A stretch of 64,000 bases of DNA, from NCBI GenBank assembly GCA_965222075.1, contig OZ244937.1:3232001-3296000 (forward strand), given 5' to 3'. The notes under the pieces were generated by a model that searched no databases, was not told the origin of the DNA, and saw nothing but the letters and a program-made list of their open reading frames with translations. Made by a program: the position numbers and the translations under genes. Positions within the stretch are counted from its first letter, which is position 1, and every line of letters begins with the position of its first letter. This DNA is from Candidatus Latescibacterota bacterium (GTDB lineage Bacteria > Latescibacterota > UBA2968 > GCA-2709665). Positions 5,021-12,031 of the stretch are shown here, in pieces.

Positions 5021-5625
5021 AGATCTGCGGGATTACGAACCGGGAGGACGCGCGCTGTGCGGTCGAACACGGGACAGACGCCCTCGGATTTATCTTTTTC
5101 CCGCCAAGCCCGCGCTACATTCGGCCCGAACAGGCCCGGGAGATTATCCGCGGCCTGCCGCCGTTCGTGACGCCAGTGGGGGTTTTTGTGAACGAAGACC
5201 GGGAGCGGATCGCGTCTGTCGCAACCTCCACCGGCCTGCGGGCGATCCAGCTCCACGGAGATGAATCCCCCGAAGAGTGTCGGGGGCATGCGGTGCCGGT
5301 GATCCGGGCGCTGCGGGTGGGCAGGGGGTTCGACCCTGCCGCGATGGAAGCTTACCCGGTTGAAACCTTTTTGCTGGACACGGCCAGGCCCGGACTTTAC
5401 GGCGGGACAGGCGAGACGTTCGACTGGACATTTGCCAGGGCGGGGGCTGCTTACGGTCGGATCATCCTCTCAGGCGGCATCAATCCCGAAAACGTGACCG
5501 AAGCGATTCGCTCTGTAAGCCCCTATGCAGTGGATTGCGGCAGCGGGGTTGAGGCCGAGCCTGGGCGAAAGGATCACGAAAAGGTGGCGGCGTTTTTCCA
5601 GGCGGTTAGATTGTTTGAGGAATGA
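5008..5625 (+). CDS. trpF: Phosphoribosylanthranilate isomerase
   Basis: VKICGIT, QLHGDE, LLDT, GGTGETFDW, LSGGI, GVE..PGRKD. Confidence 0.96.
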   Translation: MVRVKICGITNREDARCAVEHGTDALGFIFFPPSPRYIRPEQAREIIRGLPPFVTPVGVFVNEDRERIASVATSTGLRAIQLHGDESPEECRGHAVPVIRALRVGRGFDPAAMEAYPVETFLLDTARPGLYGGTGETFDWTFARAGAAYGRIILSGGINPENVTEAIRSVSPYAVDCGSGVEAEPGRKDHEKVAAFFQAVRLFEE

Positions 5626-6845
5626 ATATGTCGAAGTCGATCGCTGAACAGGTCGCTATTTTGATGCACGGCGTAAAATATGGGGATCAGCAGCTTGCGG
5701 AACGGATGACCGAGGAACTCCGGGAACGCCTGGCCGAGGGGCGTCCTCTGAAGGTTTACTGCGGCTACGATCCCACAGCTCCCGATATCCACTTAGGGCA
5801 TACGGTGACGATGCGGAAGCTGCGCCAGTTCCAGGAGTTGGGGCACGAAGTGACCTTTCTCATCGGGACCTTCACCGGCCAGATCGGGGGAGATCCTTCG
5901 GATAAGGACAGTGTCCGGTCCCAGCAGACCCCGGAGCAGGTCGCTGAAAATACCCGGACGTATGCGGAGCAGGCGTTCAAGATTCTGGACCGGGAACGGA
6001 CGATCGTGCGTTACAATGCCGACTGGTTGAGCGGGCTTTCTTTTGAGGAGGTGATCCGGCTTGCTTCCTACTTTACCGTGCAGCAGTTTCTGGCCCGGGA
6101 CAATTTCCGCAAACGGTGGGACGCCAAAGACCCGATCTGGATGCACGAGTTTTTTTATGCGCTGATGCAGAGCTACGACGCGGTGATGCTGGAGACTGAT
6201 GTACAGCTTGGCGGTACGGAGCAGCTTTTTAATCTGATGGCAGGGCGAAAGTTGCAGGAGGCTTTCGGTCAGCGCCCTCAGGTCTGTATCGTTATGCCGA
6301 TCCTGGTCGGCACGGACGGCCACATGCGGATGAGCAAGTCTACCGGGAACTATATCGGCGTGGATGAGCCGCCCGGGGAGCAGTACGGGAAGGTGATGAG
6401 CCTGCCCGACGAGGCGATGTCGAGCTATTTCAATCTGGTGACGCCCTGGTCGCTTGAGGAGATTGCCGGCCTGGAGAAGGATCTGGCCGAGGGGCGCCTG
6501 CACCCGATGGAGGCCAAGCACCGACTTGCCCGGGAGGTTGTGGAGATTTTCCACGGCGGAGAGGCTGCGGACCGGGCCAGGGCACGCTTCGAACAGCTAC
6601 ACCAGAAGCGGGATCTCCCCCAGGATATGCCAAGCTTTGCGCTGAGTGAACCGATGAAGTTGCTGGACCTGATGGTCGCATCCGGCCTGGCGCCCAGCAA
6701 GAGCGAAGGCCGGCGGCTGATCCAGCAAGGGGGCGTGCAACTCGACGGCCAGCGCATCTCTGATTTGAACTCCGTGGTGAAAATAGACGGGGCTTCCGTA
6801 CTTCGGGTGGGAAAGCGCCGGTTCCTCCGGCTGGAGAGGGCATAA
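5622..6845 (+). CDS. tyrS: Tyrosine--tRNA ligase
   Basis: GYDPTAPDIHLGH (HIGH), GDPS, QLGGTEQ, RMSKS and a C-terminal S4 domain (SKSEGRRLIQQGGV). Confidence 0.94.
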   Translation: MNMSKSIAEQVAILMHGVKYGDQQLAERMTEELRERLAEGRPLKVYCGYDPTAPDIHLGHTVTMRKLRQFQELGHEVTFLIGTFTGQIGGDPSDKDSVRSQQTPEQVAENTRTYAEQAFKILDRERTIVRYNADWLSGLSFEEVIRLASYFTVQQFLARDNFRKRWDAKDPIWMHEFFYALMQSYDAVMLETDVQLGGTEQLFNLMAGRKLQEAFGQRPQVCIVMPILVGTDGHMRMSKSTGNYIGVDEPPGEQYGKVMSLPDEAMSSYFNLVTPWSLEEIAGLEKDLAEGRLHPMEAKHRLAREVVEIFHGGEAADRARARFEQLHQKRDLPQDMPSFALSEPMKLLDLMVASGLAPSKSEGRRLIQQGGVQLDGQRISDLNSVVKIDGASVLRVGKRRFLRLERA

Positions 6846-8398: not shown

Positions 8399-9214
8399 AT
8401 GTCACGAATTTCGGATGCGTTTGCCCGTCTGAAGCAGCGGGGGCAAACCGGGTTCGTCGCCTATATCACGGCCGGCGATCCCGACCTGGAAACCACCCGG
8501 GCACTGGTTCTGGAACTGGAGCGTTGCGGGGTGGATATTCTCGAACTCGGGGTTCCGTTTTCCGATCCCTTAGCGGACGGACCCGAGATCCAGAGGGCCT
8601 ACCAGCGGGCGCTGAGGCACGGGATATCTCTTGCAGACGTTCTGGACCTGGTAAGCGACCTCAGAAAAGAGACCCGCATCCCGATCGTTCTGTTTACCTA
8701 TTACAACCCGGTCCACCGTTACGGGCTGGAACGCCTGGTGGACCGGGCGGCGGAGGTGGACATCGACGGGATTCTGGCGCTGGACCTCCCTCCTGAAGAG
8801 GCGGGGGATTACAAGCGGTTGATGGACGCGCGCGGCCTGGATACGATCTTTCTGATTGCGCCGACCAGCCGGGACGACCGGATTCGCTTGATTTCGTCCT
8901 GCACCACCGGATTTGTCTATTATATCTCTCGCACGGGGGTCACCGGAGAGCGGGAGCGGCTTGCGGATACGGTTCGGCCGATGGTGGAAAAGATCCGAAG
9001 CCATACCGCACACCCGATCGCCGTCGGCTTCGGGATTTCAAAGCCCGAGCATGCGAAAGAAATCGCCGGATACGCCGATGCGGTGGTAGTCGGCAGCGCC
9101 ATTGTCCGCCGCATCGGGGAGAAAGAAGGAGACACGGACCTGGTCTCCCACGTCGGCGACTTTGTGAAGAACCTGGTCCGGCCGCTGAAGGAGGAAAGGC
9201 ATGGAAATCGATGA
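8399..9214 (+). CDS. trpA: Tryptophan synthase alpha chain
   Basis: AYITAGDP, ELGVPFSDPLADGP, GVTG, VGFGIS, VVGSA. Confidence 0.98.
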   Translation: MSRISDAFARLKQRGQTGFVAYITAGDPDLETTRALVLELERCGVDILELGVPFSDPLADGPEIQRAYQRALRHGISLADVLDLVSDLRKETRIPIVLFTYYNPVHRYGLERLVDRAAEVDIDGILALDLPPEEAGDYKRLMDARGLDTIFLIAPTSRDDRIRLISSCTTGFVYYISRTGVTGERERLADTVRPMVEKIRSHTAHPIAVGFGISKPEHAKEIAGYADAVVVGSAIVRRIGEKEGDTDLVSHVGDFVKNLVRPLKEERHGNR

Positions 9215-9473
9215 CTGGCGAAAAAAAATTGATGAACTGAATGGCAAGCTGCTGGCGCTCCTGAACCAGAGAGCGCAATGTGCCCTGGAGATCGGGAAGA
9301 TCAAGCAGGCTACAGGCCAGCCGGTCTACGCCCCGGACCGGGAGACCGCGGTGCTCAACCACATCCGGGAGATGAATACGGGGCCGTTGAGCAACGACGC
9401 TGTTCAGCGGATCTTTCGACAGATCATCGATGAGTCCCTGCGCCTGGAACGGGAACACGGGGAGGGTGGATAG
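9201..9473 (+). CDS. Chorismate mutase, AroQ type, monofunctional
   Basis: WRKKIDELNGKLLALLNQR...IGKIK...PDRE pattern; 90 aa. Confidence 0.9.
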   Translation: MEIDDWRKKIDELNGKLLALLNQRAQCALEIGKIKQATGQPVYAPDRETAVLNHIREMNTGPLSNDAVQRIFRQIIDESLRLEREHGEGG

Positions 9474-9488
9474 GGTGTTGGCCCGCTT

Positions 9489-9643
9489 CCGGGCCTCCGA
9501 CTGTAGCGCAAACTGTTCGTTTGCGCAATAAGAACACGGGGGAATAGATATCACGTTCTTCTCACCCCCCCACAAACTGACAGTTTGTGCTACGACACCC
9601 CTCCCATAAACGGACAGCTTGTACTACGACCCGCTCGCTTTTT
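9489..9643. repeat. 155-bp direct repeat, copy 1 (three GTAG REPs, family B)
   Basis: Matches 10829-10983 with 4 mismatches. REPs at 9503-9526 (+), 9571-9593 (-), 9605-9627 (-). Confidence 0.95.
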
Positions 9644-9699
9644 GGAGGGTGTAACCGGCCCCGTTTTGGTCGATATATTCAGGGCAAGGAGTACGAGAA

Positions 9700-9900
9700 A
9701 TGACAAGTGTCACGGAAATTCAGCAAGCGATTCTATCCCTTCCCGAAGACGATTATCTTCAATTGAAACAATGGTTTAGCGAGCTGGACTGGGAAAAGTG
9801 GGACCGGCGGATTGAAGCGGATTCAAAAGGCGGAAAATTGGATTTCCTGACTGCCGAAGCCTTTGAAGCCAAAGAGAAGGGCAGGCTCAAGGAACTTTAG
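9700..9900 (+). CDS. Putative antitoxin
   Basis: 66 aa acidic protein after an AAGGAG RBS. WDRRIEADSKGGKLD resembles small partners of RelE/ParE-like toxins. Its stop abuts the toxin ATG. Confidence 0.7.
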   Translation: MTSVTEIQQAILSLPEDDYLQLKQWFSELDWEKWDRRIEADSKGGKLDFLTAEAFEAKEKGRLKEL

Positions 9901-10107
9901 ATGCACCGGACAACACCCCGCTTCCGGGCCCACTTTGAGCGACTCCCGGAATCTGTCCGAAGGGTTGCGAGACGGAATTTCCGCCTGCTCAAGGCAAACC
10001 CAAGGCATCCCTCTCTTCACTTCAGGAAAGTCGGCAAGTTTTGGTCGGTCCGCACGGGACTTTCTCACCGGGCGCTCGCCGTTGAAGTAGAACGAAATGA
10101 CAGATGA
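9901..10107 (+). CDS. RelE/ParE-like toxin, apparently C-terminally truncated
   Basis: Basic 68-aa protein with NPRHPSLHFRKVG..WSVR...HRALA. The usual final W(I)G-H..Y segment is missing, and the stop overlaps the RAYT ATG. Confidence 0.65.
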   Translation: MHRTTPRFRAHFERLPESVRRVARRNFRLLKANPRHPSLHFRKVGKFWSVRTGLSHRALAVEVERNDR

Positions 10108-10871
10108 GCCACTTTGACTACAAACCGTTCTATCGCCGCAACCTGCCACATATACAGCCGCCCGGTGCAACCTTCTTCGTCACGTTCCATCTTGCAGGTT
10201 CCCTACCGCGGACAGTCTTGCAACAATGGGCAACGGAGAAAGACCAGCTCGAAACAGAAAAATTGCGCCTTGCTAAGTTGCGAAGTAACATTCGTTTTGC
10301 CTCAGCAGAACACATTACACTTGAGAAAGAACGTGAACATCGTGAGTGGGAATGGCAACGACGGTGGTTCCGGAAATTTGAAACAACGCTAGACAAAGCG
10401 CAAAGTGGGCCCGTGTGGCTCAAAGATGAGCGAATTGCTAAAGAGGTGGCAGAGAGCCTACGCTACCGGGACGGAAAAGTGTATCGCCTGGATGCCTACT
10501 GTATCATGGCCAATCACGTACACATTGTGTTTGCACCCCTTGTGATGCAACCTTCCGTAACGCAACCTGACAGCTTGCAGGACAATGCGACCAAAGCGGA
10601 CAATTTGTGCTACAACTCGCTTTCCTCGATTATGCAATCGCTCAAAGGCTATACAGCGTGGAAAGCAAATACGCTATTGGGGCGACATGGGCCATTTTGG
10701 CAGCACGAAAGTTACGATCGAAGTATTCGGCATGCAAGTGAATGGGAGCGGATTATAACCTATGTTCTCAACAACCCGGCAAAAGCGGGTTTGGTGGATC
10801 ATTGGGAAAAGTGGCGTTGGAGTTATTACCGAGCCTCCGACTGTAGCGCAAACGGTTCGTTTGCGCAATAA
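10104..10871 (+). CDS. REP-associated tyrosine transposase (RAYT, Y1 HUH family)
   Basis: RRNLPH, FFVTF, YCIMANHVH (HUH), FWQHESYDR, YVLNNP (catalytic Tyr), W.WS; flanked by GTAG REPs. Confidence 0.92.
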   Translation: MSHFDYKPFYRRNLPHIQPPGATFFVTFHLAGSLPRTVLQQWATEKDQLETEKLRLAKLRSNIRFASAEHITLEKEREHREWEWQRRWFRKFETTLDKAQSGPVWLKDERIAKEVAESLRYRDGKVYRLDAYCIMANHVHIVFAPLVMQPSVTQPDSLQDNATKADNLCYNSLSSIMQSLKGYTAWKANTLLGRHGPFWQHESYDRSIRHASEWERIITYVLNNPAKAGLVDHWEKWRWSYYRASDCSANGSFAQ

Positions 10872-10983
10872 GAACACGGGGGAATAGATATCACGTTCTT
10901 CTCACCCCCCCACAAACTGACAGTTTGTGCTACGACACCCCTCCCATAAACGGACAGCTTGTACTACAACTCGCTCGCTTTTT
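10829..10983. repeat. 155-bp direct repeat, copy 2 (three GTAG REPs, family B)
   Basis: REPs at 10843-10866, 10911-10933 and 10945-10967. Contains the last codons and the stop of the RAYT. Confidence 0.95.
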
Positions 10984-11002
10984 TACGGAGACGATTGAAA
11001 CC

Positions 11003-12031
11003 ATGGGTTTTCAGCGCATCAAAACGCTTCCGAGCCCCGATGAGATTCGGGAAGCGATCCCCCTCTCCGGTGAGATCGCAAAGGTGAAGCAGAGGCGGGA
11101 CCGGGAGATCCAGGCCATTTTCGAGCGAAAAAGCGACAAATTCCTCGTTGTGATCGGACCGTGTTCGGCACACAATGAAGATGCGGTTTGCGAATACGTG
11201 GCGCGGCTGGCCAGGTTGCAGGAGGTGGTCGAAGAGCGGCTTCTGCTTGTGCCGAGGATTTATACCAACAAGCCCCGGACGACCGGGGAAGGCTACAAAG
11301 GGATGGGGCACCAGCCGGATCACCAGAAGGAACCCAACATTGCCGAAGGGATCTATGCGATTCGACAGATGCACCTCCGGACGATTCGAGAGTCCCACCT
11401 GACAGCGGCCGACGAGATGCTTTATCCCACCAACCTCCCCTATGTGGAGGACGTGCTGAGCTACATCGCAGTGGGCGCCCGGTCGGTGGAAAACCAGCAG
11501 CACCGTTTAACCTGCAGCGGCGTGGATGTCCCTGTGGGAATGAAGAATCCCACCGGCGGGGATATATCGGTGATGCTGAACGCAATTTATGCCTCACAGA
11601 TCCCTCACGTGTTTATCTACAATGGGTGGGAGGTGAGTACGTCCGGGAATCCCCATACCCACGGGATCTTGCGGGGAGCCGTGGATTCCTACGGCCGGAG
11701 TATTCCGAATTACCATTATGAAGATCTGATTTATATGGCGGAGGCGTATCTGGAGCACGAACTGGCGCATCCCGCGCTGATTGTGGATTGCAACCACAAC
11801 AATTCGAACAAACACTACGCCGAGCAGCCCCGGATCGGCATGGAGGTGATGCAGAGCCGCCGGAGATCCGACATCTTAAATGGGATGATCCGGGGGCTGA
11901 TGGTCGAGAGCTATCTGGTGGAAGGGTCGCAGAGCGTGGACGAAAACGTGTACGGGAAATCGATTACCGATCCCTGTCTGGGCTGGGAGGACTCCGAGGC
12001 GTTTGTGAAAGAGCTGGCGGAGGCGGTATAA
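11003..12031 (+). CDS. aroF: DAHP synthase, class I-alpha
   Basis: IGPCS, KPRTT, GARSVE, VGMKN, DCNH, SITDPCLGW. The upstream ORF extension is repeat-derived. The isoenzyme (aroF/G/H) is not resolvable by eye. Confidence 0.9.
   Translation: MGFQRIKTLPSPDEIREAIPLSGEIAKVKQRRDREIQAIFERKSDKFLVVIGPCSAHNEDAVCEYVARLARLQEVVEERLLLVPRIYTNKPRTTGEGYKGMGHQPDHQKEPNIAEGIYAIRQMHLRTIRESHLTAADEMLYPTNLPYVEDVLSYIAVGARSVENQQHRLTCSGVDVPVGMKNPTGGDISVMLNAIYASQIPHVFIYNGWEVSTSGNPHTHGILRGAVDSYGRSIPNYHYEDLIYMAEAYLEHELAHPALIVDCNHNNSNKHYAEQPRIGMEVMQSRRRSDILNGMIRGLMVESYLVEGSQSVDENVYGKSITDPCLGWEDSEAFVKELAEAV

Follow-up and report, generated by a model that had tools for sequence, protein, structure and literature searches.

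IS200/IS605 elements pass through single-stranded circles as a normal intermediate. Among the TnpA-Y1 proteins, subclass 2.7 is characterized, in the available parts of its source, by the motifs [ND]HVH, WQ and YI[LR][NQ]NP, by E100 occurring as D and H101 sometimes as R, and by long GTAG REPs, while an in-frame REP insertion is called unique to subclass 2.4 and some members of 2.8 (PMC6006769). Other RAYT members nick single-stranded REP DNA at CT and transfer strands, according to the accessible text of PMC8266576. For the E. coli REPtron, the accessible part of its description proposes the capture of flanking genes or gene fragments and reports a REPtron replaced by hicAB (PMC3333891). The RAYT-REPIN systems of Pseudomonas and Stenotrophomonas are mostly inherited vertically and are now and then established at a new site or gained horizontally, in the portions available of PMC2817692, PMC3686654, PMC5581495 and bioRxiv 2021.07.10.451892. 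A RAYT gene that shares its REP-bounded stretch with toxin-antitoxin genes is compared with these systems below.

The window analyzed here is a 64,000-nucleotide stretch from a Candidatus Latescibacterota bacterium whose genome (G000) is a single 5.36-Mb contig. The parts of the cassette and its two flanking genes given below are numbered on the plus strand, apart from one REP pair to which no strand is assigned. Between the host genes for chorismate mutase (CM; 9201..9473; Pfam CM_2, with a C-terminus normal for the genus) and DAHP synthase (11003..12031), two REP arrays occur as direct copies of 155 bp each, at 9489-9643 and 10829-10983 and 1340 bp from start to start. They mismatch at four positions (9492/10832, 9514/10854, 9628/10968 and 9631/10971; 97% identical), and their hairpin folding beats that of shuffled sequences (z of -2.9 to -3.3). 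The left array consists of a forward GTAG REP (9503-9525), an inverted REP (9571-9593) and a degenerate REP (9608-9627), and the right array overlaps the last 14 codons of the RAYT gene. A sequence-only reading that preceded this analysis had described the four differences, the three kinds of REP in each copy, the RAYT codons within the repeat and the AT-richer DNA between the arrays, and all of this was confirmed. GC content is 0.51 over the unit and 0.57-0.61 in the flanking genes, and GC3 is 0.52-0.60 in the unit as against 0.72-0.73 in the flanking genes (trpA, CM and DAHP synthase compared). A genome-wide search, as the same reading had suggested, showed the unit to be unique in G000. Outside the locus, only three lone REPs of the cassette's class occur in the G000 genome; the class numbers seven good copies there, and each of five relatives gives between 3 and 17 pattern matches. 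Neither a sigma-70 promoter consensus nor one for a terminator was detected within 9400-11100. In two relatives of another genus, G009 and G017, a lone REP of this class lies directly upstream of an apparent tRNA gene (L215 8861, L226 1034).

The tail behind the left array (9628..9672) has its homologue in the spacer downstream of the RAYT-terminal array of G009 and G017, and its score was reached by none of 2000 shuffles in either genome; the left array is therefore a "downstream-type" copy. Both G000 arrays have the third REP as well as a loop variant, neither of which occurs in G009, G017 or G001, a genome of the same genus as G000. The left insert boundary falls somewhere within a short leader ahead of the left repeat (9474..9488); homology of this leader by itself to a RAYT tail or spacer was considered and rejected, the match not being significant.

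The RAYT gene (10104..10871) encodes 255 aa with an intact HuH motif (H138, H140) and Y220-x3-NP, behind a 17-bp leader (10087..10103) that is common to G017 and G009. H138, H140, W199, D205, Y220, N224 and P225 are unvarying in 86 aligned sequences, and dN/dS of 0.20-0.23 indicates purifying selection. A PDB profile search returned E. coli TnpA-REP (4ER8) as its sole match (E 1.1e-8), and the same structure was the top Foldseek match (E 2.9e-6) of a structure model with a pLDDT of 83.6. NCBIfam NF047646, the top family match for all 86 aligned relatives, scored 55.6 bits against this RAYT (E 5e-15; cut-off 80). From its sequence the enzyme is an intact TnpA-REP/RAYT, for which strand nicking and transfer are predicted. 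Its motifs NHVH, FWQHESYDRSIR (with the WQ pair) and YVLNNP agree with the subclass 2.7 criteria as given in Table 1 and the accompanying text of PMC6006769. It resembles that subclass, as far as the source is accessible, in the E100-to-D and H101-to-R changes at the GTAG-reading segment, in the long canonical GTAG hairpin REPs, cognate to it, on both sides, and in having about one copy per genome; on motifs, E100-as-D state and REP type it is assigned as subclass-2.7-like. Of 168 genomes searched, G000 and four others were positive, with a single close RAYT copy apiece, and five further genomes also have one close copy each, two of the five with a distant paralogue in addition. A second, distant RAYT-like gene of G000 lies outside the window (C1 ~1859056-1859415) and holds two GTAGGGGC-type REPs, a class with dozens of G000 copies that include window positions ~685 and ~4157.

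A departure from subclass 2.7, going by the same partial source, is a degenerate REP pair in frame within the RAYT gene (10557..10613, no strand assigned), whose score was reached by 0 of 2000 shuffles. The HuH and Tyr motifs enclose it in a loop modeled with low confidence (approximately residues 146-172). In the 35 closest relatives this loop is 18-30 residues long, and most of the distant ones have about 10. An in-frame REP insertion at this place characterizes a subclass-2.7-like RAYT clade (relatives L028-L056), and an intact inverted REP occupies the same loop position in many Poribacteria RAYTs. REPs that begin with GTAA, not GTAG, flank the RAYTs of L031, L032 and L106 (the G012 and G070 type). 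Residue 200 of the RAYT was considered as a tracker of this switch and discarded, since His at that position mostly co-occurs with GTAG.

The three open reading frames between the arrays (9700-9900, 9901-10107 and 10104-10871) abut or overlap, in the arrangement that had been read as antitoxin, toxin and RAYT; the label "toxin" needs qualification. The 66-aa product of 9700..9900 is intact and belongs to no Pfam family, and is a probable antitoxin by gene order, as it is the usual upstream partner of a ParE-like gene in relatives. The RelE/ParE-like toxin gene (9901..10107) is truncated. Its homology stops at codon 62 (10086), and its final six residues are read from the RAYT leader; relative to a length of 84 residues, the last 22 are gone, with the last strand and helix. 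Toxin homologues measure 80-86 aa in 57 of 60 cases, and full-length relatives of 84 aa match Pfam ParE_like PF24732 and are predicted to fold like RelE/YoeB (fold E-values just above 0.001). The G000 copy itself has no Pfam match; a PDB sequence search with the toxin gave nothing significant, and its fold matches, consistently RelE/YoeB, all had E >0.001. The antitoxin-first, coupled order is that of RelE/ParE type II pairs (PF24732), from which the locus differs in the shortened toxin and in an antitoxin outside all Pfam families. The truncated toxin is very likely dead, judging from what it lacks, and a pair of this kind would therefore not form a working addiction module. Of 168 genomes from the phylum, 31 contain the pair or part of it and 5 contain the RAYT.

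Short direct repeats surrounding a low-GC stretch could lead an assembler to duplicate one array, and read support for two copies had been named as a check by the sequence-only reading. We consider such an artefact highly improbable. The genome is a single 5.36-Mb contig, and near-identical contigs (at most two differences) are carried by three of the four sequencing runs examined (X12, X14 and X15, from three studies; 17 runs had matches). These contigs bridge the joint between CM and the left array and that between toxin and RAYT, and both array exits are also spanned by contigs of X12, which may be the source sample. A second long assembly agrees, with an identical antitoxin and a RAYT that differs by one residue. 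Because the joints recur across runs, the cassette is not an assembly artefact, barring a single source behind all of these runs, and both arrays are real. Depth ratios as a measure of circles or empty sites were dropped, since contig depth is not equal to copy number.

At the insertion site, 15 of 19 close CM sequences end in E(D/G)G, as in G000; since CM thus keeps the C-terminus normal for its genus, the insert starts after the CM stop codon. Host sequence starts again at ~10985. The same comparison rules out an insert that split the end of CM with a 4-bp target duplication. It also rules out a circle joint at an 8-bp match (9461), 9461-9473 being host sequence. CT dinucleotides at the joints were not counted as a RAYT signature: where toxin and leader meet, the bottom strand does read C-T, but this joint is ambiguous by one base. 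Comparison of the locus in relatives, as had also been proposed, was informative. A match to the array is absent in 12 of the 13 relatives whose fetched locus contains both CM and DAHP synthase, and other genera have the site without the cassette. In G001 (94% identical), CM reads into 41 bp of one REP unit, followed by DAHP synthase, and neither RAYT nor antitoxin was found in this genome, which is 94% complete. Four of the 19 close CMs run into REP in this way and the other 15 end normally, so that the G001 allele is a derived deletion and not an ancestral empty site. In its remnant the left junction continues into the variant that the right copy has at 10854, the outcome expected of crossing over between the two arrays. 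The 41 bp retained are not the full 155-bp array that had been expected to remain after excision. A DNA pattern scan for further alleles of the site gave no metagenome match.

Antitoxins 88-100% identical to that of G000 are present in six other assemblies, on contigs sized like those carrying CM or TrpA; co-location was deduced solely from these equal contig sizes. In two long assemblies with DAHP synthases two and six residues from that of G000, the antitoxin is present, no member of the RAYT 90% cluster occurs, and another repeat family precedes DAHP synthase. That repeat family is dispersed in G000 (C1 1139390-1138988, 430910-431002 and 864090). An unrelated palindromic insert of ~200 bp fills the CM-DAHP spacer of G016, G015 and G006 (L015, L016, L019), and this spacer apparently attracts repeats. 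Elsewhere in the window, a tyrosyl-tRNA synthetase-like ORF (5622-6845; named by sequence) lies within the trp cluster and is followed by a non-coding gap of ~300 bp.

Sequencing run X1, a sponge metagenome and the sole run with matching contigs that bears a habitat label, is ~93% identical to G000 in the flanks. It holds an antitoxin-RAYT contig at 95-97% in which the toxin is shortened further, together with a left joint of the G001 type. A 14-bp sequence at 9482..9495 has an exact second copy within the toxin gene (9917-9930), and a joint between these copies is present in X1. We withdrew X1 as proof that a sister species has the cassette elsewhere, the shorter side of the joint 9464->10839 being 46 letters; because of this short side, and because no joint skipping 10880-10984 is among the matches listed, the X1 cassette may sit at the same site. 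G001, the RAYT-less assemblies, X1 and the antitoxin distribution together indicate, from sequence, that the cassette has long been in the genus, differs from strain to strain and is in decay.

In order to judge whether the arrays are peculiar to this locus, we collected 160 RAYT loci (80 of 440 GTDB matches and 80 of at least 565 metagenome matches, the two sets overlapping in part), of which 96 had enough flank. Direct repeats of at least 50 bp and at least 80% identity lie on both sides of the RAYT in 25 of the 96, although two of these 25 are distant repeats unconnected to REP arrays; four of the 96 reach at least 100 bp and at least 90%. A recognizable gene between array and RAYT was found in none, a single 72-aa ORF without Pfam match being all that occurs there. 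Near-identical flanking arrays are a habit of the family and cargo is the exception; as direct arrays are common in the family, no integration event is needed to account for them. Against the proposal that the REP arrays carry cargo stand the broken toxin and the lack of other cargo in 96 relatives. A search of viral contigs gave no RAYT relative, and one of plasmids gave one distant match (32%). Restriction-modification operons of several types (type I, type III, PLD-SNF2, ISP) house many RAYTs of this family and may be a transfer vehicle (L029, L040, L051, L080, L083, L085, L089, L095, L060, L065, L063, L228), and others lie between tandem paralogues such as PhyH dioxygenases, alpha-amylases and methyltransferases (L034, L108, L072, L097).

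In a quick tree of 79 rows, the five Latescibacterota RAYTs, from one host family, form one clade (support 99) within a Poribacteria-dominated clade (98), and they occupy three sites. The 45 closest loci fall into 16 neighborhoods that largely track clades, some singletons being short contigs, and RAYT sites are constant within clades. At the G012/G070 site, decayed REPs are kept by most of the 13 other genomes examined. G002 and G072 have one unit that is an overlap of the first upstream unit and the RAYT-terminal unit; such solo units mean that loss between direct copies does occur. In G009 and G017 the RAYT lies directly behind a resident antitoxin, in a toxin-antitoxin hotspot common to nine genomes (RAYT in two), and it is this resident type of antitoxin, not that of G000, that adjoins it. 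This hotspot of genus g2, upstream of a CMD-family gene, contains HicB-like and other small genes in variable states of decay, and the toxin has usually been lost before the antitoxin (L008, L026, L027, L194-L204). RAYT dS between G000 and G009/G017 is 0.45-0.46, while DAHP synthase dS is 1.7-3.0 to four other genomes of their genus, G009 and G017 themselves being left out.

G021 belongs to another family. Between its methyltransferase and type III restriction genes lie a 5' remnant of a RAYT, half a REP, an antitoxin and a whole toxin. Of the 18 antitoxins compared, no other from beyond the genus comes closer to that of G000 (87%, dS 0.23), with a DAHP synthase dS of 2.8 between G000 and the family of G021; the toxin is less close than the antitoxin, at dS 0.67 to the G000 toxin. 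A 13-bp REP variant is found, among all fetched loci, only in the G021 half REP and in the right array of G000. The 47-bp RAYT 5' piece has its top score against the G000 RAYT, one point ahead of the next. The order RAYT-REP-antitoxin-toxin in G021 is a circular permutation of array-antitoxin-toxin stub-RAYT-array in G000. Horizontal transfer of RAYT and antitoxin is shown as far as sequence comparison can show it, and the block appears to have changed bacterial lineage with its parts reordered, and to be lost again by deletion between its repeats.

Our preferred explanation, which we hold at a probability of about 0.55, is that the RAYT-array unit and the pair moved as a block at least once, that its order was permuted by way of a circle or tandem repeat, and that the arrays were then homogenized and favor deletion. 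The unit would be a REPtron, that is, one HUH tyrosine nuclease with arrays of its own GTAG hairpins, to which a small toxin-antitoxin pair of the RelE/ParE type was joined; the joined block would have gone from one lineage of the host phylum to another on a few occasions, and would have settled between CM and DAHP synthase in the genus ancestor or spread through the genus by recombination there. The arrays, kept alike by conversion or recent duplication, would now be mainly deletion substrates, and the antitoxin would be a hitchhiker. RAYT nicking with strand transfer, or host recombination, could have made the joints. Such a REPtron would relocate rarely with its hitchhiking pair, probably once through a circle or tandem repeat. 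Counting against co-transfer of the block, the G021 remnant is short and leads by a single point, the toxins are more distant than the antitoxins, the antitoxin beside the RAYT in G009 and G017 is of resident type, and none of the 96 relatives has gene cargo. The antitoxin may also be a resident that predates the RAYT, given its presence in six other assemblies of which two long ones lack a RAYT-cluster member. In a less probable alternative, a resident pair and a REP array were already in the variable spacer, a RAYT-array unit later struck the 3' end of the toxin, the direct repeats are ordinary REPtron flanks homogenized in place, and nothing was co-mobilized here. The antitoxin is indeed found across the genus, including the two RAYT-less strains with the other repeat family before DAHP synthase; the g2 hotspot, in which G018 has a whole pair without a RAYT, offers a parallel, and RAYTs of the cassette's family sit in many unrelated spacers. 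However, no close full-length toxin was found from the genus (best match 84%), and this alternative leaves unexplained both the G021 block, with its REP variant, closest outside antitoxin and RAYT remnant, and the downstream-type tail of the left array.

We consider unlikely the model first put forward for this DNA, in which an active element bounded by REPs would be cut out and inserted by its RAYT as a 1340-bp circle with toxin-antitoxin cargo. Such an element would fit the 97% identity of the arrays, the intact enzyme, the presence and absence among close strains, the permuted G021 order and the G001 remnant that joins the left junction to variant 10854, and TnpA-REP strand exchange between REP sites in vitro is reported in the available part of PMC3333891. 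The toxin is truncated, though, the element is present in single copy with only three lone REPs elsewhere in the genome, no second cargo occurs in 96 relatives, the G001 allele requires a second deletion, and neighborhood clusters track RAYT clades; an E. coli RAYT gene, moreover, gave no circular DNA (bioRxiv 2024.07.17.603846, accessible in part). The idea of a mobile REP-delimited unit therefore stands in part: array-less sites, loss alleles (G001, G002, G072) and the permuted G021 block speak for it, while the broken toxin, arrays that are a family habit, single copy and sites constant within clades speak against it. Nothing shows that the cassette is an active cargo-carrying transposon; no circle junction appeared in the contigs examined, in which the shared core is collapsed. 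It is conceivable, if doubtful, that the RAYT lineage is not fully domesticated, and that REP nicking followed by excision and re-integration of a circle took up adjacent genes and carried a toxin-antitoxin pair between families in sponge-type communities, G000 and G021 then being two openings of one circle.

The enzyme class is known; the passenger and the history are unusual. Like IS608 and ISDra2 of the IS200/IS605 group, this RAYT has a predicted HUH Y1 fold, but it carries Y-x3-NP in place of Y-x3-Q, and the locus has neither distinct left and right ends nor multiple identical copies. It departs from subclass 2.7, within the accessible text of PMC6006769, in that its upstream array is separated from the gene by an antitoxin and a toxin stub, and in its signs of block transfer and permuted order. 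As in the E. coli REPtron (4ER8; PMC3333891, in part), REP clusters border the gene and deletion leaves REPs; that REPtron occupies a single fixed locus and is reported as an element that "does not appear to transpose as a unit", whereas the G000 lineage is found at three sites in five genomes of one family, and unlike in the hicAB replacement the toxin-antitoxin genes lie inside the REP-bounded stretch. Inverted REP doublets are shared with Pseudomonas and Stenotrophomonas RAYT-REPINs, which have hundreds of REPs as against seven good copies in G000, and the accessible portions of those reports (PMC2817692, PMC3686654, PMC5581495, bioRxiv 2021.07.10.451892) describe no passenger genes. RAYT loss that leaves REPs, hicAB replacement, occasional new sites, intragenic REPs and the gene-capture proposal are already described in the parts available of PMC6006769, PMC3333891, PMC5581495, PMC8266576, PMC2817692, PMC3686654, PMC3733652, bioRxiv 2021.07.10.451892 and bioRxiv 2024.07.17.603846. 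No description of a RAYT-REP block with toxin-antitoxin genes came to light, also in searches on permuted REPtrons and on REPs in Poribacteria and Latescibacteria, within a coverage that leaves out most subscription journals, and captured genes may appear in Fig. S7 of PMC3333891 and in the REPtron lists of PMC3733652 and PMC6006769.

If the lineage does move in this way, the locus would be a natural test case of whether a RAYT is able to mobilize its gene. One lineage displays alleles that hold the block, have lost it or carry it in permuted order, accompanied by a marker gene, and a 1.5-kb unit fits a reporter. If host recombination explains everything, the locus would be no new class of element, yet would still clearly document how REPtrons turn over in an uncultured phylum.
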